From IMG/VR virus record IMGVR_UViG_3300044953_000572, positions 1 to 60,512 of that record: a DNA stretch of 60,512 nt; one strand, given 5' to 3'. Of this stretch, positions 12,307 to 37,832 are shown in pieces (within the stretch, counting starts at the first letter, position 1; every line of letters begins with the position of its first letter). The notes under the pieces are model-generated. The model had not been told where the DNA came from, ran no database searches, and saw only the letters and a program-made list of their open reading frames with translations. Made by a program: the position numbers and the translations under genes. Origin of the DNA: a virus (taxonomy: Duplodnaviria > Caudoviricetes).

Positions 12307-13314
12307 CTAATCCCCTCTAAATTTAGATAAGAAGCTACTTACCACCTTTGAAGTCGCTTTATATGCGGAAGACCCAGTCAGCTTCGCCACGTTCGCAAAC
12401 AGATTGCCACTTTTTTTCATGGTGAGACCAGCAAGACCCGCTATAGAAGCACCAGCGAGGCCAGAAATGAGTGAACTGCTTTGAGAGCCTGAAATGGCAA
12501 ACGCCATTTCTTGAGCAACCATTAAATAATAGATTGAAACCGCAGCGACTATAGATAACCCGCTAAATGCTTTAAAAACGTCAGCCTCGGTAATAGTGGC
12601 TACGTTCATGCTCGCTTCAAACTGGCACAATGAAAACATAATAAGCGACAAACAAAACGAGGAGATAACGATGGTTAGCGATGCGCCTAAAACGTTTCTT
12701 AATGCGCCAACCGCGTAACCTCTGGTCTGCTCAAAGGCAAAACAGACCATTAACAAAGGGGATAAAGCCCATAATACCGACAGCCTCAGCAAATAAGTTG
12801 AAACATGAAACGCGTATATCCCTTCACAAGCGATAAACGCCAGATATACGACAAAACCAAAAATCCCAGCTTCAACAAAAGCGGCAAATCCCGCTTTTTG
12901 TTTAATTTCCAAAGACATCTCTAAAAATCTACTACATTTATCCTCTATTTTGTCTAAAGCATCTTTAGAATTTGCTATACCACTAGAACCCTTATTGCCA
13001 ATAGATAATATTTTACAAACTATGGTGTCGGTGGTTTTTTTAATTGGCACACAAATAAAATTTTTAAAAACACCGCTACCCGTACTTATCATAAAACCCA
13101 CGACGGTAAAAAAAACCATCTTCTTCCCAAGTTCTATAAAATCAATATCGCCCTTAACCAATCCATCATAAATCTTATACGCAACCCAAATACTTACGAA
13201 GCAGCCAAAGATGGTCGAGGAAAAGCCACTTAAACTTCTCGCCCCAGTTTCCGCAAACTGCTCAATGACTTTTTCTATAGGATCTATTAAGAGCTTTCTT
13301 AAACTAATAATCAT
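12307..13314 (-). CDS. virB6: VirB6/TrbL polytopic membrane protein
   Basis: Multiple TMs, LSPLLMVCFAFEQTR motif, position after virB5. Confidence 0.85.
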   Translation of the reverse strand: MIISLRKLLIDPIEKVIEQFAETGARSLSGFSSTIFGCFVSIWVAYKIYDGLVKGDIDFIELGKKMVFFTVVGFMISTGSGVFKNFICVPIKKTTDTIVCKILSIGNKGSSGIANSKDALDKIEDKCSRFLEMSLEIKQKAGFAAFVEAGIFGFVVYLAFIACEGIYAFHVSTYLLRLSVLWALSPLLMVCFAFEQTRGYAVGALRNVLGASLTIVISSFCLSLIMFSLCQFEASMNVATITEADVFKAFSGLSIVAAVSIYYLMVAQEMAFAISGSQSSSLISGLAGASIAGLAGLTMKKSGNLFANVAKLTGSSAYKATSKVVSSFLSKFRGD

Positions 13315-18832: not shown

Positions 18833-19088
18833 CTCTCATCTCCTTATCGCATTCACCTTTAGCAACTCGTTCAGCCTTAAGCTGAATCGAATACAAATGA
18901 CTCCTCAAAGCATCTATCTTGTTCAGCATGTTCATCGCAAAGCCCATGCCTTGAACTCTATCGCCATCTTGTGCAATTTCAACGAACACATCACTACCAA
19001 GCCTTGAGGCCATGCCACATTCCAAGCTAATTGTGTCAAACACGTTGCGAATGAATTTAATCTCTGAAAGCATTTCTTGATTATGCAT
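18822..19088 (-). CDS. Hypothetical protein
   Basis: 88 aa, AAGGAG RBS, overlaps the Sak4 stop. Confidence 0.6.
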   Translation of the reverse strand: MHNQEMLSEIKFIRNVFDTISLECGMASRLGSDVFVEIAQDGDRVQGMGFAMNMLNKIDALRSHLYSIQLKAERVAKGECDKEMRDVA

Positions 19089-20115
19089 TGATTGCCACTC
19101 CTTCCGTTTGTTCTTGAATGTAAAACTCTCTCACCTTCATGAAATCCACCCAAGCTTGTTTAGCTTCAAAGTTATCCGCTTCCAGCTTGTCGATAATTCT
19201 CATAGCTTGTTCTTCGGTGAAATCATCGAACTTAGCAACACCAGCTTTAGCGAACCATTTGTTAACTACGTCTTGTGATATCTGGCATTGAGCAACCAAA
19301 AACTTAAGATGATTTCTGGTCTCTTCCTTTACCTTTGGCCCTTGCGGAATTGGATGAACCTGAGCAGCTTTTTGTAACGGGACTTGTTCTTCAGTTAAAA
19401 GCACAGGCTTAGGTGTGAAATGTGCCAATTCTTTCTCATACAACTTTTTAAACACCACGTAAGAAAAATCTATCTTCATGTTGGGCGCTAATGAACCAAT
19501 AGTAGATTTTGTTATGACGGCCTTGTACTTGTAAGTATTATCTTTCTCGTCTTTCTCTATCTTGGCTTCCATCACCACTTCTGAAAAATAATCAAACTTG
19601 TCATAAGCGTCGAAAGTCGTACCAGAAACGCTATCGTCATCCCACACATCTTTAGAATGCGCGGTGATAACGACATTCATATCTAACTGTCTCAGTAAAT
19701 CCACTAAACCCTTAAATTTAGCTTTCGCTTTTTGATAGTCCAAACCAAACGCTATTTTTTGGCCATTGTCAGGTTTGTTACCTAAAAGTTTAGCTCGGCA
19801 TTCCGCTATTGTTTTAGTGTAAATGGGAGTTATCGAATCAATGACTAAAGTTTGATAATCATGCTTGCATGACGCTAATACCTTAATTTCTTTCAACAAC
19901 TCATCAAAACTATCCGTTTGCCAGACTACAGACCCATTTTTATTCAAATGGTCTACGTACAGTTGACGTTTAATACGGCCTTCGCAGTCAATGTAATAAG
20001 CTTTAGGAAACTGCGTAGCGAAAAACGATTTACCACACCCACTCTTACTAAACAAAAATAATTTCAATCTTTGGTCGCATTCGCTCACTGGGCGTCCTCT
20101 TAATTGATTACTCAT
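19081..20115 (-). CDS. AAA_24/Sak4-like phage recombinase (copy 1, with C-terminal extension)
   Basis: LKLFLFSKSGCGKS Walker A, YIDCEG, LVIDSITPIY Walker B, VVITAH. Confidence 0.8.
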   Translation of the reverse strand: MSNQLRGRPVSECDQRLKLFLFSKSGCGKSFFATQFPKAYYIDCEGRIKRQLYVDHLNKNGSVVWQTDSFDELLKEIKVLASCKHDYQTLVIDSITPIYTKTIAECRAKLLGNKPDNGQKIAFGLDYQKAKAKFKGLVDLLRQLDMNVVITAHSKDVWDDDSVSGTTFDAYDKFDYFSEVVMEAKIEKDEKDNTYKYKAVITKSTIGSLAPNMKIDFSYVVFKKLYEKELAHFTPKPVLLTEEQVPLQKAAQVHPIPQGPKVKEETRNHLKFLVAQCQISQDVVNKWFAKAGVAKFDDFTEEQAMRIIDKLEADNFEAKQAWVDFMKVREFYIQEQTEGVAINA

Positions 20116-20345
20116 TGGCATGCTCCTTTGCTGATTAAGTCCAGGGTGTAATCATGCTTGCCAAAGCAAACTTGGCTTAGAAGAGAAATGGGCAAGTTAA
20201 AGGCAAAGCGGTCGCTGTAGTGTGGTCTATGGTTTTCTCGGGCTAACCTGGAAAGGTAAGCCTTGATAAACGCATTCTTGGTTAGTCGGTTGGTTTTGGG
20301 TTGGTCGATCACTTGAAGGTGATCTGATATGCTATCGATAGCCAT
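20112..20345 (-). CDS. Hypothetical first gene of the leftward operon
   Basis: GGAG RBS; stop overlaps the Sak4 start (ATGA). Confidence 0.55.
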   Translation of the reverse strand: MAIDSISDHLQVIDQPKTNRLTKNAFIKAYLSRLARENHRPHYSDRFAFNLPISLLSQVCFGKHDYTLDLISKGACQ

Positions 20346-23870: not shown

Positions 23871-23979
23871 TAGGATGACTAAATTTAATCATTGCGCATT
23901 GAATAAAACTGGGAGCCAGGGTTGCGCAGTGCGTATTTTTTAGGTATCTTTTTCTTTCCTTAGATTGTGCTTATATTTT

Positions 23980-24034
23980 ACCCCGCATCCTATCGACTAT
24001 CTCCAACAGTCAACTTCTTGCGGGGTTGTTTTTT
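23980..24034 (+). terminator. Long hairpin plus U-tract (terminator of the rep-proQ-par operon, or a small RNA)
   Basis: ACCCCGCA...TGCGGGGT stem, inner GACT/AGTC stem, then TGTTTTTT. Confidence 0.55.
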
Positions 24035-24043
24035 AGGAATCGC

Positions 24044-24223
24044 ATGTTTACAAATCAAGTTGGCTTAGTCAAAAAAGAAAGTGCGGAACGTATTCGCATA
24101 CGCAGTCAGATTTATAAAACGCTGGATAGTGGATTCGGCCAACGGATAGCTAGTCAGATGTCTTCTAACATCGTTAATACTTTAGAGAATGCTAGAGCCA
24201 GGTTAAGCAAGTTTCAAGGATAG
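24044..24223 (+). CDS. Hypothetical protein
   Basis: AGGA RBS, ATG at 24044, 59 aa. Confidence 0.4.
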   Translation: MFTNQVGLVKKESAERIRIRSQIYKTLDSGFGQRIASQMSSNIVNTLENARARLSKFQG

Positions 24224-24474
24224 CTAAAGTCGTTCAACTACTCACAGCTTCTGTGGATGTATTACCAAACACCATCATTTCTCACATAAGCATTCGCCAT
24301 ATTCCTTCAATTCTGTGTGGTTCCAACATTTGTTGCAGAAGCCTAGGGATTTGAGGTCTTTTTTAATCCTTCTTATTCCTGTCCTTGAGTAAGACACCAT
24401 AATTTTATGATAGCCTAATTTTTGTTGTAGCATAGACAGAATTATTATGTGCCTGCTGGTTAGTGTCTTTGAGA

Positions 24475-24873
24475 TCAGATGTTTTTTTTCAAATCTTCAT
24501 GCCCTAGATGTTCGAGGATTTGGGATTTGAAGATGGTTAAAGCTTCACTCAACGAGTCTCCTTTGATGTGATGGTTTATGGACATCAAGTTTTTGTGGTT
24601 TTTCAACCTATGAAATTTGAATAGATCGAAGACCGAGCTTGCGGAACTAATCAATATTGGCAAGTTTTCGTGACAGTCCAAGATGTCGGCGCCAAAGTCT
24701 AGACCGCTTCCGTCTGGCAGTCCGATATCTAATATGAGAGCGTCAAATTCTTGCTGTTCGCATGCGCTCACCGCTTCTTTGCCATAAGCAAATATGAAAA
24801 GGTCATCTTCTTGCAAAAATGCCTTATATAAATTTTGAATTAATGGATGGTCTTCTAACACTAAAATCTTCAT
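24475..24873 (-). CDS. Response regulator receiver domain (REC); continues in the -1 frame to 24275
   Basis: MKILVLEDH, FDALILDIGLPDGSG, PILISS; AAGGAG RBS before ATG 24873; ends just after an A8 tract. Confidence 0.85.
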   Translation of the reverse strand: MKILVLEDHPLIQNLYKAFLQEDDLFIFAYGKEAVSACEQQEFDALILDIGLPDGSGLDFGADILDCHENLPILISSASSVFDLFKFHRLKNHKNLMSINHHIKGDSLSEALTIFKSQILEHLGHEDLKKNI

Positions 24874-24994
24874 CCGTATCTCCTTGTGATAAAAGTACTG
24901 TATAAAAACCTTGGCCACCGGTGAACCCGATTTATTTTCGCAAATCGGAGAAAACTACTATTTTCCCGATTGCAAAAAAGCTAGAATTTGATTT

Positions 24995-25029
24995 TGCCAG
25001 ATGCCAGATGCCAGATGCCAGATGCCAGA
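24995..25029 (+). repeat. Heptamer tandem repeat (TGCCAGA)x5 with degenerate tail
   Basis: Five perfect copies, then CGCAGATGCGACAG. Confidence 0.95.
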
Positions 25030-25356
25030 CGCAGATGCGACAGTTTTGCGATTTTTTTAGAGGTTTTGAGTATATGATGACTTAAAGATTTTTTGGTTTT
25101 TTTGCTCTTGGCTAAATCAAGAGCTGAAAATAGGAGCTTACTAATTTGCTTGCCGGCGGTTAGTAAGCCCCACCCGTTACCAACTACAGTAAGGAGTTCT
25201 CACGAACATGCTTATATTAGCAAGCCTGCCATCGTATAAAAATAGGTTTTGCCTTTTTTTCAAAAAAATATATTTCATCGAGATCCTTTTCGATACAGCT
25301 TTCCATTAACTTTGTGTCATTTAAATAACATTTAAGTTAACTGGGAGACTATTGAA

Positions 25357-25651: not shown

Positions 25652-25942
25652 ATGAGTAACGCAACGATAAGTAAGACCATTTTGATTTCAGGGTTAAACA
25701 ATGAAATCGCCAGACGTCTTCTGATTTTGAAAAATAAAATTTTAAGTTGGAATGAACTATCGAGTAACGCTGAAGATGAGATGCAGTATGTTATATGCGT
25801 TTCTAAAGAGATTTTAGAGTTAATGCGCACCAAATCTCAACTGTTAGACAGCAAAGCATATATTTTTAATTTTTCGCTTAAAGATAGCGTTAGCAAAAAA
25901 GCCCCAGTTGAAAATACTAAGAAACCCAAAAGGAAGCGTTAA
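25652..25942 (+). CDS. Hypothetical phage protein
   Basis: AGGAG RBS; TAATG overlap with the next gene. Confidence 0.6.
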   Translation: MSNATISKTILISGLNNEIARRLLILKNKILSWNELSSNAEDEMQYVICVSKEILELMRTKSQLLDSKAYIFNFSLKDSVSKKAPVENTKKPKRKR

Positions 25943-26619
25943 TGCAATTAAGAGGTGTACCACCGAAGGAGACGAGAAGAGGTTTAAAGCTTTTCGTATA
26001 TTCCGAACCTGGCGTAGGAAAGAGTTATTTTTGTTCTCAGTTCAAAGAAGCCTATTACATCGATACTGAAGAAGGGGCCAAGATGTCTAAGTACGTGGAG
26101 AACATTAATAACAATAAAGGCGCCTTATTCTCAACGAGGAAGTTTAACGATTTGGCGCAAGAATTGGTGGCTTTGTCTAACGTAGAGCATCCATATGAAA
26201 CAGTAGTCATCGACTCCATCACTCCCATATATGACGACCTAGTAGAAGAAGAACGGGAACGAATTAAGAAAGAAGGAAGAAAATTCGCAATGTCAGAAGA
26301 ATATAAGGTTGCTAATTCCAGGTTTAAGAAGATGGTTTGGCTGCTACTTGATTTGCCGATGAACGTGGTTATTACCGCACACGCCAAGAAGGAGTATGGA
26401 GAAGCGATGAACGTCATAGGGACGACTTTCGATGGTTATAAAAAATTCGCCTTCATGTTTGATTTAGTCCTTGAAGCCACCGTAAGGAAAGGGAAACGTA
26501 TCGCCATCGTTAAGAAGTCCAGGCTTTTAGATTTAGAGCCAGACCAGGAGTTTGAATTTAGCTTTCAAGAGTTCTCGAAAATTTATAGTAAGGAAATTAG
26601 AAATGTTGAGCCAGCGTGA
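25942..26619 (+). CDS. AAA_24/Sak4-like phage recombinase (copy 2)
   Basis: LKLFVYSEPGVGKS, YIDTEEG, VVIDSITPIY, VVITAH. Confidence 0.85.
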   Translation: MQLRGVPPKETRRGLKLFVYSEPGVGKSYFCSQFKEAYYIDTEEGAKMSKYVENINNNKGALFSTRKFNDLAQELVALSNVEHPYETVVIDSITPIYDDLVEEERERIKKEGRKFAMSEEYKVANSRFKKMVWLLLDLPMNVVITAHAKKEYGEAMNVIGTTFDGYKKFAFMFDLVLEATVRKGKRIAIVKKSRLLDLEPDQEFEFSFQEFSKIYSKEIRNVEPA

Positions 26620-27659: not shown

Positions 27660-30092
27660 ATGGGGTTTTTGCATGAGTTCGAACAAGCTATGCGCAATGA
27701 CGGAATATATCCGTCTTGCGCCTTGGAAGCTACTAGGGAAATAAAGCGTATCCAAGCCAAAGGCGATAAATCTTCTACCCGCAATATTGCTTATTGGTTC
27801 GTGGATGAAGGAAATTTGGCGTATGGTTGGTACCAGCATTGGGGTAAAACGGATGGTAAAGGATGGGTTTCTAGAAAATGGAATACGGTGAATTCACAAA
27901 AAAGAAAAGAAATACAGGAAAAATTTGAAGAAGCCAGAAAAGAAGAAAAAATCAAAAGGAAACAACAATATGAAGAATCGGCTATAGAAGCGCAAAAAAT
28001 ATGGAATAACGCCAACCCATACGAGAACCATCCAGCCTTATTAAATAAAGGATTTAGTTTAAACGATTCAGATAAGAGAATAGAAAAGGAATTAATGCGT
28101 CTAAAAATTAAGTCGGATGATAAAAGTGTATTAATACCGGTTTTTGATGAGGCGAATAAATTATGGACTTTGCAGCGATTATTAAGACGAACGGACGAAA
28201 AACCGAACAAGATGTTTTTGAAGGATGGGAAGAGCGGTGGTTGTTTTTACGTTATAGGTGGTAACTTTAATGAGTTGTCAGGACAAGTAGCTATAGCTGA
28301 AGGATTTACCACGGGTTTATCCGTGCACCTAGCTTTAGATATCCCCGTCATCGTCACTTTTTCGGCTGACAATCTGCTAAAAATATGTTCTTCGAAATTT
28401 ATGCTTGAAAAAGGACTACAGTTTATCATTTGTGGTGATGATGACAGGTTTGGAAAAGAAAATAAGGGGAGAGAAAAAGCTACTGAGGCTAGAAATAAGC
28501 TGGGGTGCAAATTAGTATTTCCAGTTTTTAAGAATTTAGAAAAAGAACCCAGTGATTGGAATGATTTACATTTGTTAGAAGGTTTGGAGACCGTTAGAGA
28601 ACAAATATTAAAAGCCATGTCGTCGCTTAACGTGGCTGAAGTTTCGGATATGCCATTAGGACATCTGAGCGAAAAGGAAAAACCCATCTATATCTCCAAA
28701 CTTATTATTTCTAAGATTGATACTTGCTTTAATGAATTATCAACCAAGAAGTCTTATTTGAAATTTAAAAATGAGAAAAGGTTTTATGAATGTGGTTCAA
28801 GCGAGTTTTTCGTAAGAATAGCGGGAGAGTACAGCGCTGTTTTCGGGGAGTCGACCAGTACTAATAAGGAAATTTCTAGATTGGTGGAACATTATTTAAA
28901 GTCTGAGGAAAACGGCGTGATTTGGATTGAAGCTAGCAAGCCAGTTTATTTAAAAGACGAAAAGGTGTTTTTCAAAACTGATTTAAAAGATTATCCCATA
29001 TACGAAATAGATAAGGATGGGTTTAGAGTTAGCGCTGAAAAAGACTACACCGCCTTTAAAAACTTCGTTAACAAAAAAGATAATGAGATTGTTTTCACTT
29101 TATCAAAGGAAAAAGCCACGTTGCCAGAGCTGGAAATGTTTTATACGGTCAAAGGGATGGATTTGATTAAAATATTAGCTTTTTGCATGTCTTCCATATT
29201 TTCCAAGGAAAAATATATATTGGGGATTTTTGGTCCGTTTGGCAGCGGAAAGGATTATGTCCAAACCAGAATACAAGAAACGTTATCGCCATTGGAGTTA
29301 TTTAACAGAATGATGCCAAGCACAAAACGAGATTTAATGGTAGTCTCCAGCCAAACGTTCGTTAATGGGTATAGCAATATTAGTTTTATATCAAAAGAGT
29401 ATCAAGATTATTTTTGCTTATTGGTTAGTGAAACGTCAGATCCAGCGAGGCAATTATTCTCGGATAATACCGTCGTTAATATTAAAGCCCAAACCCCTAT
29501 TGTTTTAAATGGTATTAATAACATCATTGAGCGAGAAGACTTGTTAAGTCGAATGATGATTATCAATCTTGAGCGCATGAGTAGCGACACTAGAATTATT
29601 TGTAAAAGCGGAATATTAAAAGAACTTCAAGGTAAAGCACAACACTTCATATTTAGTATGATTTCCTGGTTTTTAGTAAATATTGATGAAATAAATAAAG
29701 AAATGGCGTTAAAAAATAGAACCGAAAAATTGGCGTTATGGATGTATTATTGTTCAAGATACGCTGAGATGGATTTTACGATTAAAGATTTTCACGAAGA
29801 CCAAGAAAAAGAATTTATAGATAATATTATGTCAAACCCAATATTCATGGCTATAGAAAATTACTTTACGAAAAGTAACAAAACTACGCTTAGAGGTAGC
29901 GTTACGGAAGTGTGGGAAAGCGTAAAGAATTGGACTGACGTTGGTTACTTGAAAAATATGCTTCCACATCATTTTATGCGAGAAGTTAATAGGATAGATT
30001 TCAGTAAAACCCATATTAATTTTATTTCATCTGGGAAAAAATGGGTTAACGGCAGATGTCAAAATCAAATATGCTTTGAGGTTTCAGAATGA
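27660..30092 (+). CDS. Primase (TOPRIM)-helicase fusion
   Basis: IAEGFTTG, ICGDDD, SDWNDLH TOPRIM motifs; C-terminal P-loop GPFGSGKD, DLLSRM. Confidence 0.85.
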   Translation: MGFLHEFEQAMRNDGIYPSCALEATREIKRIQAKGDKSSTRNIAYWFVDEGNLAYGWYQHWGKTDGKGWVSRKWNTVNSQKRKEIQEKFEEARKEEKIKRKQQYEESAIEAQKIWNNANPYENHPALLNKGFSLNDSDKRIEKELMRLKIKSDDKSVLIPVFDEANKLWTLQRLLRRTDEKPNKMFLKDGKSGGCFYVIGGNFNELSGQVAIAEGFTTGLSVHLALDIPVIVTFSADNLLKICSSKFMLEKGLQFIICGDDDRFGKENKGREKATEARNKLGCKLVFPVFKNLEKEPSDWNDLHLLEGLETVREQILKAMSSLNVAEVSDMPLGHLSEKEKPIYISKLIISKIDTCFNELSTKKSYLKFKNEKRFYECGSSEFFVRIAGEYSAVFGESTSTNKEISRLVEHYLKSEENGVIWIEASKPVYLKDEKVFFKTDLKDYPIYEIDKDGFRVSAEKDYTAFKNFVNKKDNEIVFTLSKEKATLPELEMFYTVKGMDLIKILAFCMSSIFSKEKYILGIFGPFGSGKDYVQTRIQETLSPLELFNRMMPSTKRDLMVVSSQTFVNGYSNISFISKEYQDYFCLLVSETSDPARQLFSDNTVVNIKAQTPIVLNGINNIIEREDLLSRMMIINLERMSSDTRIICKSGILKELQGKAQHFIFSMISWFLVNIDEINKEMALKNRTEKLALWMYYCSRYAEMDFTIKDFHEDQEKEFIDNIMSNPIFMAIENYFTKSNKTTLRGSVTEVWESVKNWTDVGYLKNMLPHHFMREVNRIDFSKTHINFISSGKKWVNGRCQNQICFEVSE

Positions 30093-31750
30093 TTTTAAGG
30101 GAATACCAAGCCACGGCGGTTAATCGTAGTCTAGACTGTTTAAAAAGACTTAATAACACGTTATTGGTCGCTGCCACGGGTAGTGGCAAGACCATCTGCT
30201 TATCGGCTTTAATATCGGAATTCGTGAATCACAGCCAACGGGCGGTTAAGGTTCTCGTATTGCAGCACCGAAAAGAAATTATCTGGCAAAATATGCAAAA
30301 GTTTAATAGAGTAGATCCTTCCATCCATATTAGCCTTATTAATCAAGAATCAAAAGATAATAGTGGTACGGTCGTGTTCGCCATGATTCAGACCCTGCAT
30401 AGAAACCCTGATTTAATTCAACATTATGATTTAATCGTGATTGACGAAGCACACCATGTTGTCGCTGAAAGTTATTTGCAAATAATAAGAAAAATTAGAG
30501 TAATAAACCCAGAGGCTAAAGTATTCGGGGTAACCGCAACCCCATTAAGAGGCGATGGAAAAAGGCTAGCTGATGTCTTTAACAACGTTAGCTATGCGGT
30601 TGATATGGAAGATTTGATAGCCAGTGGTGTTTTGGTTAAGCCAAAAGCCTATGTCTTAGATATTGGGTTGAGTGAGGAAATAGAAAAAAGAACGAATGGA
30701 AAATATAATTTATCAAATCTTGAGTTTGACACGCTTTCAAGCGAAATTATACAAAATTTCTCCGTTGAACTTCATACCGCTTTTAAATATTGGCAAGAAC
30801 TGGCGGTTGATAGAAAAACCGTAGTATTCACGCCTACCAATAAAGATTCTATGCTTATTTCACATGTTTTTAACGAGTATGGAATAAAAACCGCCGTAGT
30901 TACCCATGACACGCCAAAAAGAGAACGTGAACGGATATTAAACGACTTTCAACATGGTGATATTCAAGTACTTTTTAATACCTCTATTCTTACAGAAGGA
31001 TGGGATTGCCCAATCGCATCTTGTATCGTGCTGTTTAAAAGTTCCAGCAATAAATCCACTTACATCCAGATGGTCGGACGTGGGCTTAGATCATATCCAG
31101 GCAAGCAAGATTGCGTATTAATAGATTTTGGCGTTTCAACTATGCGCCATGGCTCATTAGAGCAAAACTTTTTTAAAAGCGTTAAAGCAAAAGATTTAAT
31201 TGAAATTGAAGAGACAGCTTATAAAATTTGTCCTGGTTGTAAGTCTAAAATTCCATCCGCCCAGAAGGTTTGCTTTATATGTGGATTTGAATTTGAAGGA
31301 GAAGAAGCTAAGAAAAAATTAATAGAGGAGTTCAAATTAAAAGAAATAGAACTTATTAAGAATATAGAGGAAAAATGTAGCTATAAATTCGTAGATGTGA
31401 ATGAAAATGATAAACATTTTATCGCCGTGGTTGACTTTAAATCTTATATTGGAATATTTAAAAAAAATGATTATTGGTACGTTGTCGGCAATTTAGATAG
31501 TGGATATACCGAAATGTATAGCTCTTCAAAATCTAAAGCTCAATGCTATGAAATCGCTTACAAGAAATTGAGAAGTAGTTCGAACAAAGCTGATATTATG
31601 AAAAAAAATAAGGAATGGCTAAATTATCCGCCTACCGACAAACAATTAGCTTTACTTAAAACGAAAAAAATACCACAAACAAGATACGAAGTTACCTGTC
31701 ATTTGGCGTATCAATTCAATAGAAAATACATCAATAGACTGCTAAATTAA
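30089..31750 (+). CDS. SF2 DEAH-box helicase with Zn ribbon
   Basis: LREYQ, ATGSGKT, DEAHH, TATP, LTEGWD, QMVGRGLR, CPGC...CFIC. Confidence 0.95.
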   Translation: MILREYQATAVNRSLDCLKRLNNTLLVAATGSGKTICLSALISEFVNHSQRAVKVLVLQHRKEIIWQNMQKFNRVDPSIHISLINQESKDNSGTVVFAMIQTLHRNPDLIQHYDLIVIDEAHHVVAESYLQIIRKIRVINPEAKVFGVTATPLRGDGKRLADVFNNVSYAVDMEDLIASGVLVKPKAYVLDIGLSEEIEKRTNGKYNLSNLEFDTLSSEIIQNFSVELHTAFKYWQELAVDRKTVVFTPTNKDSMLISHVFNEYGIKTAVVTHDTPKRERERILNDFQHGDIQVLFNTSILTEGWDCPIASCIVLFKSSSNKSTYIQMVGRGLRSYPGKQDCVLIDFGVSTMRHGSLEQNFFKSVKAKDLIEIEETAYKICPGCKSKIPSAQKVCFICGFEFEGEEAKKKLIEEFKLKEIELIKNIEEKCSYKFVDVNENDKHFIAVVDFKSYIGIFKKNDYWYVVGNLDSGYTEMYSSSKSKAQCYEIAYKKLRSSSNKADIMKKNKEWLNYPPTDKQLALLKTKKIPQTRYEVTCHLAYQFNRKYINRLLN

Positions 31751-37583: not shown

Positions 37584-37832
37584 ATGCCTAAAGTAAATAA
37601 TCTTTCCAAGAATCCTATTTTTGAAAAATTAACTAAAGAATATGGTGGGGTGGTTAATCTTGCTTCTTTTCTTGGTGTTAGTGTTTCTTCTGTATCTGGC
37701 TGGTTGAGAGACCCAAAGGCAAAAGTCCCTATAAAACATGCTATAAATATAGAAATTTTAACAAAAGGAGCTGTCAAGGCTAGGAGTCTGCGGTCTGATG
37801 TTATGAAGAACTATGAATTGGTGGCGAGATAA
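37584..37832 (+). CDS. Cro/YdaS-like HTH regulator
   Basis: YGGVVNLASFLGVSVSSVSGW...AINIEILTKGAVKARSLRSD. Confidence 0.85.
   Translation: MPKVNNLSKNPIFEKLTKEYGGVVNLASFLGVSVSSVSGWLRDPKAKVPIKHAINIEILTKGAVKARSLRSDVMKNYELVAR

Follow-up and report, generated by a model that had tools for sequence, protein, structure and literature searches.

A response regulator gene with a conserved split at an A8 run in a phage-plasmid-like element, and its possible recoding into a receiver and a receiver-HTH-Cys4 protein

Recoding, be it by ribosomal frameshifting or by polymerase slippage, is well known for transposases, phage tail chaperones and dnaX, and for a few regulators such as mxiE. IS1 uses an A6C motif, the dnaX site is accompanied by an upstream Shine-Dalgarno (SD)-like element and a downstream hairpin, and in Campylobacter jejuni the response regulator FlgR is under phase variation controlled by a homopolymer. 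In insertion sequence (IS) elements an upstream DNA-binding open reading frame (ORF) is fused to a downstream ORF by frameshifting (PMC5009743), and the regulator gene mxiE gives an extended product via transcriptional slippage (PMC5009743, PMC1088944). A literature search covering titles and the first lines of abstracts turned up no response regulator made by frameshifting or slippage, and the main text of the GeneTack survey contains 0 mentions of 'response regulator', its supplementary cluster tables being a place that could hold one (PMC3711429). Here we analyze a response regulator gene at positions 24,275 to 24,873 of a viral stretch of 60,512 nucleotides (nt) (Caudoviricetes; IMG/VR record IMGVR_UViG_3300044953_000572), the whole of which is called the window below. 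Standard reading of the gene gives a receiver (REC) of 132 amino acids (aa) that ends at a run of eight A (A8), and the -1 frame, open from just before this run, encodes a domain with a helix-turn-helix (HTH)-like core and four cysteines (Cys4). The break between the two is conserved among relatives of the receiver, and the domain in the -1 frame is conserved including the part in front of its first start codon.

As in FlgR, the frame of a response regulator depends here on a homopolymeric tract, but FlgR varies at the DNA level between cells whereas 12 of 12 variants of the present gene are split alike. The gene shares with mxiE of Shigella flexneri that a transcription regulator lies in two overlapping frames joined at a homopolymer, the longer and active product of mxiE needing slippage. 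However, MxiE is of the AraC type and no response regulator, mxiE is grouped with slippage sites of nine A or nine T (PMC1088944), and the run at the end of REC has eight A and also forms a ribosomal heptamer. The OrfA-OrfAB arrangement of the IS1 and IS3 families is similar in its autonomous short upstream product with a minor trans-frame fusion, its short overlap and its A-rich motif (PMC5009743); IS elements, though, have DNA binding encoded first and catalysis second, whereas the locus described here has the sensor upstream and the DNA-binding part downstream, no transposase and no stimulator shown. With dnaX of E. coli, which gives tau and gamma, it has in common an A-rich tandem-slippage heptamer in a gene of cellular type, and it would likewise give two products from one gene. 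The dnaX heptamer is A AAA AAG, whose A-site codon AAG shifts far more readily in E. coli (PMC5009743) than the AAC found here; moreover, the shifted product of dnaX is the shorter one, and no RNA structure was found at the REC site.

The split gene consists of the following parts:
24475..24873, minus strand: REC ORF, 132 aa plus TGA (ORF read and translation; Pfam Response_reg)
24880..24885, minus strand: SD sequence AAGGAG with a 6-nt spacer to the REC ATG (read directly)
24481..24489, minus strand: A8 run (24482-24489) followed by C, the proposed slip site (read directly)
24275..24496, minus strand: ORF of the -1 frame, open part from stop to stop, R followed by F1 to K72 and the TGA at 24275-24277

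The REC ORF runs from the ATG at 24871-24873 to the TGA at 24475-24477 and closes with the codons GAT TTG AAA AAA AAC ATC TGA. Read in the REC frame, the heptamer A AAA AAC (24487 to 24481) has the X XXY YYZ register and encodes K129, K130 and N131, the REC stop following one codon past it; on the plus strand the run is the only T8 of this area (24482-24489). In the -1 frame, a TGA at 24497-24499 is followed by 73 codons without a stop down to 24275-24277, and the frame opens four codons ahead of the A8 run. The peptide is numbered F1 to K72 (72 aa), and its earliest ATG, GTG or TTG is M21 at 24433 (ATG 24431-24433). ORF reading and translation confirmed what an earlier sequence-only reading of this DNA had proposed, namely that the REC ORF ends at the A8 tract with the -1 frame open from just before the run, and returned the -1 peptide down to 24275 exactly as it had been quoted there, including its CxxC-x11-CxC. 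Three features of a programmed -1 frameshift site are present, the in-register heptamer, a downstream ORF in the -1 frame and a short overlap. As to an upstream SD-like element, there is just a weak AGGG 14 nt 5' of the heptamer, the relevance of which is speculative.

For this sequence 24 sequencing runs were listed, labelled as lake-water metagenomes and none of them RNA. Logan contigs, which come from an independent assembly method, were compared for four runs (X1, X3, X4 and X5) and were all identical in sequence, with the A8 run itself covered by X1 and X4 alone. The contigs of X1, a run that may represent the source sample, and of X4, from another study, are identical to the stretch with no indel, and record 8 of X4 spans 24411-24586 with the same A8 and 0 differences.

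A word-index protein search with REC gave six close clusters at 71-90% identity, and all their members together number 13: the window's own protein, one fragment of 61 aa and 11 further full-length variants. The full-length set of 12 (71-100% identity) was drawn from ENA and JGI metagenomes, where about 16 contigs encode it. Every one of these 12 proteins ends in L-K-K-N-[I/T], the stop coming right after it in two (P0001 and P0006) and five residues later in ten, and K129, K130 and N131 are invariant throughout, whereas residues 125-127 and all those past 131 are variable. GeneTack asks of a conserved shift at least five genes and a conserved frameshift position (PMC3711429); the position is conserved here in 12/12 at the protein level with the invariant K-K-N. 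None of the 12 full-length relatives carries REC fused to a second domain. Fused forms were sought by a length-free search of representatives and by listing all 13 members of the REC clusters, and neither the 5.8 billion clusters nor the 1.84 billion representatives yielded a fused homologue.

In contrast to the body of REC, the tails past N131 in this frame vary strongly (SPQRH, LFHTF, SSQKH, SSQRY, CYQRH, SSQRH) among proteins with 71-90% identity in their other parts. Minimum-change back-translation of these tails onto the DNA of the window gives -1 peptides of the type HL[I/T/L]S[K/H/Y][T/I]LT, with changes that are silent in the -1 frame for SSQKH and SSQRH, and the second stop that they share, a TAA, lies within the codons for the conserved Leu-Thr when read in the -1 frame. 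Such a pattern would fit selection on the -1 frame from the run onward, in an estimate that is biased to the window's own sequence. An alternative genetic code with TGA as a sense codon was also considered and rejected: it adds only five tail residues up to the TAA of the 137-aa relatives and leaves the two domains unjoined. Table 11 gives intact long ORFs in the window.

The REC ORF is a member of the receiver family with a complete domain. Its match to Pfam Response_reg (PF00072) scores 47.3 bits, above the curated cut-off of 30.2, with E 2.7e-12 and residues 3-80 corresponding to positions 1-80 of the 111 in the profile, and the profile of the REC family finds 46 receiver sequences in the PDB at E<=0.001. 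AlphaFold, run with an alignment of seven sequences, gave a full (beta-alpha)5 pattern at a predicted local distance difference test (pLDDT) value of 70:
Secondary structure of REC, by residue: beta1 2-6, alpha1 10-20, beta2 24-28, alpha2 31-40, beta3 45-49, alpha3 56-67, beta4 73-76, alpha5 108-122

The alpha4/beta5 region is weak (pLDDT 54-63), and residues 127-132 are disordered with values below 50. E7, D8, D49, S77 and K104 are invariant in 7/7 REC sequences, and their positions suggest E7 and D8 as the acidic pair and D49, at the end of beta3, as the phospho-acceptor, with S77 as the receiver Ser/Thr after beta4 and K104 as the Lys after beta5. As alpha5 ends at about residue 122, the A8 run encodes linker beyond a complete receiver, and the linker past alpha5 is where ordinary regulators join REC to their output domain.

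Two parts can be distinguished in the -1 peptide:
24347..24469, minus strand: conserved HTH-like core from K9/T10 to S49 with predicted helices 13-23, 27-34 and 37-49 (AlphaFold, VIA)
24284..24337, minus strand: Cys4 motif C53-x2-C56...C68-x-C70 with W57, H59, G66 and E67 (invariant in 4/4)

A HMMER search with the 72-aa peptide against the 1.84 billion representatives gave five matches at E<=0.001. Among them are P0010 (58 aa, 72% identity, E 3.9e-19) and P0012 (64 aa, 43% identity, E 3.9e-09), the latter with a near-identical cluster mate, P0021. The alignment of these three relatives with the -1 peptide has 19 invariant columns, which include C53, C56, W57, H59, G66, E67, C68 and C70. Judged by this comparison, with 72% identity to P0010, 43% to P0012/P0021 and all four Cys kept, the -1 peptide is under purifying selection. 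The Cys4 motif is a presumed zinc knuckle, metal binding being suggested by its CxxC...CxC pattern. The three other matches (P0011, 2841 aa; P0013, 4907 aa; P0014, 567 aa) are giant or repetitive K/E-rich metagenomic proteins that match via 6-25 weak copies of a unit of about 66 aa; residues 36-72 of the -1 peptide (24275-24388, minus strand) resemble the repeat unit of P0014 (BLASTP E 8e-07), in which the four Cys are replaced.

AlphaFold predicted for the -1 peptide (pLDDT 65) the helices 13-23, 27-34, 37-49 and 54-58, followed by the Cys-rich end. Foldseek gave nothing significant with this model, the top row being the C-terminal domain of DosR (1zlj) at E 5.2. An exhaustive VIA search gave rows with Z 3.8-5.2 that are mostly HTH or winged HTH (wHTH) DNA-binding domains, where Z below 8 may reflect nothing beyond a common helical arrangement. 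The best row is the ArsR-type 1y0u (Z 5.2), and the C-terminal domains of response regulators follow with ChrA (4yn8, Z 5.0), RcsB (5o8y, 4.5), DegU (7x1k, 4.3) and NarL (1a04/1je8, 4.0), as does GerE (1fse, 3.9); altogether LuxR-type C-terminal domains lie at Z 3.8-5.0, and wHTH domains of ArsR, MarR and AsnC at an equal level. By sequence, no match to GerE (PF00196) was obtained, as hmmscan of the 72-aa peptide at E<=1 gave Trp_repressor alone (E 0.11, 13 bits, cut-off 27). No Pfam family was found for P0010 or P0012, nothing significant for the -1 peptide in PHROGs and NCBIfam, no usable match in the ESM Atlas, and nothing below E 0.15 with the profile of its alignment against PDB sequences. 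The word-index search returned no candidate for the 72-aa peptide and only P0012 and P0010 for the alignment of its family. Since the fold matches are weak and no family is reached by sequence, we label the domain HTH-like with a presumed zinc knuckle. The output domain postulated in the sequence-only reading is thus upheld: it is conserved, its core of three helices is HTH-like and its four Cys are invariant. Its assignment to the LuxR/GerE type finds no Pfam match, and the fold matches do not tell this type from ArsR-type HTH.

With regulators of the NarL/FixJ group (LuxR/GerE-type; NarL, RcsB, DegU, ChrA, DosR) the predicted fusion would share the order of REC, linker and small C-terminal helical domain and a size of about 200 aa, and the weak fold matches include C-terminal domains of that group at the matching position in the chain. 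It differs from them in having no GerE Pfam match, in ArsR-type wHTH domains that score equally well or better, in its extra Cys4 knuckle and in its two frames.

Searches for related loci at the DNA level did not reveal any relative. Among viral contigs, profile searches with P0001 or the REC alignment gave no related locus, and ParA as bait reached 37% identity at most. With REC as query, genome contigs yielded generic receivers alone (<=39% identity) and metagenome contigs generic REC patterns, with 43% identity as the best among the matches listed. The alignment of the -1 peptide family found none in genome and viral contigs, 23900-25300 had no blastn match among phages and plasmids, and tblastn of the -1 peptide, P0010, P0012 and P0021 against 229 loci returned the window itself alone.

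Where translation of the second domain might start is informative for the relation between the two halves. P0012 and P0021 are 64-aa proteins with a Met of their own at the position of K9, and the start of P0012, M-T-L-S-A-R-Q-Q-T-I-L-A-L-L, aligns with K-T-L-T-S-R-H-I-I-I-L-S-M-L in the window. Identity to P0012 amounts to 5/12 in residues 9-20 and 22/52 in residues 21-72, which is a similar conservation in both parts; it begins at T10/L11, and the conserved domain therefore starts about 12 codons 5' of M21, the first canonical start of the window. A protein that begins at M21 would lack 8 of the 11 residues in the predicted helix 1 (13-23). Neither an SD nor a comparable purine motif precedes this ATG (24431-24433), whereas REC has AAGGAG. 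Ten codons of open -1 frame remain 5' of K9, and the A8 run is among them. The K9 codon itself (24467-24469, minus strand) is AAG; an ATG at this place would at the same time create a TGA in the receiver frame and so an ATGA overlap. From the protein P0012, it may be that the family switches by a single base change between recoded and two-gene coupled forms.

Runs of at least eight A or T are rare in this DNA, with 7 observed in 60.5 kb against 21 +/- 5 expected from first-order Markov simulations, and the window contains none of nine or more; this depletion fits selection against such runs in this genome. The chance of such a run within the 30-nt stretch in which a frame switch would join both domains is roughly 0.002-0.004, a figure that is post hoc as the site was originally chosen for its run. 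The bare heptamer AAAAAAC is frequent (35 copies in the window), and other A8 runs of the record lie at 13108, 31460 and 31601. Two of these, 31460-31467 and 31601-31608 on the plus strand, encode an in-frame K-K-N in the helicase gene 30089-31750, with no open alternative frame and no frame transition there. Because the heptamer is common and the helicase gene has these two in-frame A8 K-K-N sites, the run is no signal by itself. Transcriptional slippage is described for runs of nine A/T in many genomes and for shorter ones in some (PMC1088944).

The reading that we consider the most likely one, in a judgement that falls just short of even, is that recoding at A8/A-AAA-AAC yields REC alone together with a minor 199-aa REC-HTH-Cys4 fusion. 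This reading is favoured by a break that lies in the disordered linker just past alpha5 of a complete REC, by the ending of 12/12 RECs at one site with K129, K130 and N131 invariant amid variable neighbours, by a conservation of the -1 frame that starts upstream of M21 with no SD at this codon, and by a -1 frame that opens just four codons before the run, with an in-register heptamer and the same A8 in a contig of another study. The locus would accordingly be one gene for a two-domain response regulator, REC plus a new HTH-like/Cys4 DNA-binding domain, that is deliberately kept in two frames. Standard decoding would give the stand-alone receiver of 132 aa, with the stop two codons past the A8 run, and a minority of decoding events would enter the -1 frame on the run, either by tandem -1 slippage of the ribosome on A AAA AAC or by the addition of one A by RNA polymerase, which would produce an A9 mRNA. 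Either route would lead to the same 199-aa protein of REC, linker, HTH and Cys4, with the usual size and layout of the NarL/FixJ type. The short form could then draw off phosphate or compete with the long form for dimerisation, and the efficiency of slipping would set the ratio of sensor-only to DNA-binding protein. What we infer here is the slippage itself with its kind and efficiency, what the two products do, and which DNA is the target.

Several observations weigh against recoding. No fused homologue came out of the searches described above, and, as no DNA of a relative was found, conservation at the run is seen in the proteins only, as K-K-N. P0012 and P0021 have their own Met, so the second domain can exist as a separate protein of 64 aa, and the -1 peptide has three database relatives in all. 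An A8 that encodes K-K-N is tolerated as ordinary coding sequence at the two sites in the helicase gene. RNA structure downstream of the site is not significant (minimum free energy -15.5 kcal/mol, z -0.80, equalled by 34 of 200 shuffles). A_AAA_AAC is far less shift-prone than A_AAA_AAG in E. coli (PMC5009743), and slippage is usually selected against from nine A/T on (PMC1088944), the run here having eight. Finally, AlphaFold confidence is modest for both halves (pLDDT 65 for the -1 peptide and 70 for REC).

The same observations could also mean two separate polypeptides, the receiver and an HTH-Cys4 protein of 52-64 aa, that are made from one mRNA by termination-reinitiation or coupling and act in trans, the second one starting at M21 or at a near-cognate CTG, ATC, ATA or ATT (24479 to 24437) and the A8 being a remnant of the K-K-N linker. 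P0012 and P0021, with 64 aa and a Met at the exact start of the conserved domain, and P0010, called as a protein of 58 aa, speak for this arrangement, as do the lack of any fused form in 5.8 billion clusters or 1.84 billion representatives, the lack of a stimulatory RNA structure and the A8 K-K-N in ordinary genes elsewhere. We regard this main rival as rather unlikely. The window has no ATG, GTG or TTG between the upstream stop of the -1 frame and M21 and no SD at M21; a start at M21 would cut into the predicted helix 1 and discard a stretch that is no less conserved than the remaining domain, and both the rare A8 in the 30-nt frame overlap and the K-K-N that is invariant in 12/12 would be left unexplained.

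The remaining explanations concern the run as DNA. In the sequence-only reading the regulator had been suggested to be phase-variable or frameshift-tuned. Under phase variation, replication slippage would switch the tract in subpopulations, A8 being the OFF state with the receiver only and A9 the ON state with the full regulator, and it is true that A8 runs are hotspots of replication slippage (PMC1088944; PMC3711429) and that an A9 tract would restore one frame. Yet 0/12 full-length relatives (about 16 contigs) are in the fused, ON frame, the contigs of X1 and X4 both have A8 with no indel (contigs hide minority variants), and no A/T run of at least nine exists in the window, which speaks against variation at the DNA level and makes it quite improbable. 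We give a similarly low rating to decay, in which the ancestor, a fused regulator, would have dropped one A (A9 to A8) and left at most the receiver in function, with the downstream frame not yet degraded. Frameshift mutations are commonest in homopolymers and no fused relative is known as the intact state, but the break is common to lineages down to 71% REC identity, and the downstream domain is open, 72% identical in P0010 (a similar level) and 43% in P0012, with all Cys kept, where a dead 3' part should carry stops and indels at that distance. A sequencing or assembly error in an ordinary gene with a true A9 is very improbable. Homopolymer miscounts are a common artefact, but the same A8 with 0 differences in record 8 of X4, from the other study, and the same frame break in 11 other, independently assembled variants rule out a one-off miscount, and the split, which is common to 12/12 RECs, proved to be genuine and no A9 assembly error. 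The sequence-only reading had named the lack of fused homologues as a sign against itself, and indeed none was found; with the break conserved and the downstream domain intact, however, this points neither to an error nor to a dead gene but indicates a gene that is obligatorily split or recoded.

The record is an IMG/VR contig with a completeness of 46% according to CheckV. To the left of the REC gene lie genes for a MobA/MobL relaxase, a type IV coupling protein, VirB4, a Rep-like protein, ProQ/FinO and ParA, and to the right those for a Sak4-like ATPase, primase, helicase, HNH, resolvase, terminase, portal, head and tail proteins. The position of the gene between a plasmid-type and a phage-type arm, which had been noticed from the sequence, is thereby borne out, as is the missing cognate kinase, since no HATPase_c or HisKA domain is present in the 46% complete record. 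The best plasmid relatives of the coupling protein are at 33-35% identity (Candidatus Paracaedimonas plasmids). The REC gene is divergent from the phage replication block, with 480 nt of intergenic region between them, and from this position it is a reasonable guess that the regulator governs a lifestyle switch. The intergenic region contains one further feature:
24995..25038, no strand assigned: tandem array of the heptamer TGCCAGA (x 6.4), 5' of the divergent REC gene

All Logan contigs of the four runs break inside this array, which in X4 has a depth of 128 and is flanked by foreign, GC-rich sequence; other organisms in that sample therefore have this repeat as well. An operator array or a promoter element of variable length could be its nature, or it could be a mere assembly-breaking repeat. 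The plasmid-type arm (1-24990) and the phage-type arm (25040-60512) meet near it, and a chimeric contig joined at the repeat was considered. This is not favoured as the arms are alike in GC content (0.409 vs 0.399), tetranucleotides (correlation 0.975) and depth of the X1 contigs (10.6 vs 9.5), and the phage-plasmid-like mosaic is probably one molecule. Two paralogous genes for Sak4-like AAA_24 ATPases (19081-20121, minus strand, and 25942-26619, plus strand; Pfam E 6e-24 and 1e-24; PHROG 124) flank the block of Rep, ProQ, ParA and regulator in opposite orientation. A small ORF at 37584-37832 (plus strand) matches the phage repressor/regulator PHROGs phrog_35 (E 8.5e-10) and phrog_409 (E 8.2e-09) and sits between the terminase and portal genes, which is an unusual location for a repressor-like ORF.

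In summary, we tentatively propose that this phage-plasmid-like element carries an always-split regulator that is made by programmed slippage in two isoforms, an abundant receiver decoy and a rare receiver-HTH-Cys4 protein with a new, probably zinc-binding output domain. The second half, even as a separate protein, represents a new small HTH-Cys4 family without a Pfam, PHROG or NCBIfam model, and it is an example of a regulator output domain mostly missed by gene callers, the -1 ORF of the window having no identical entry in the protein search. If the proposal is true, this would be the first recoded two-component regulator, and the efficiency of slipping, not transcription, would set how strongly a signal from a host kinase leads to DNA binding at the divergent promoters that separate maintenance genes from phage replication genes. 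If the slippage is programmed, it would add a new layer of control to two-component signalling, in which decoy receiver and active regulator come from one gene in a fixed proportion, and a regulator of this kind on a phage-plasmid-like element could couple host signals to maintenance or lytic replication.

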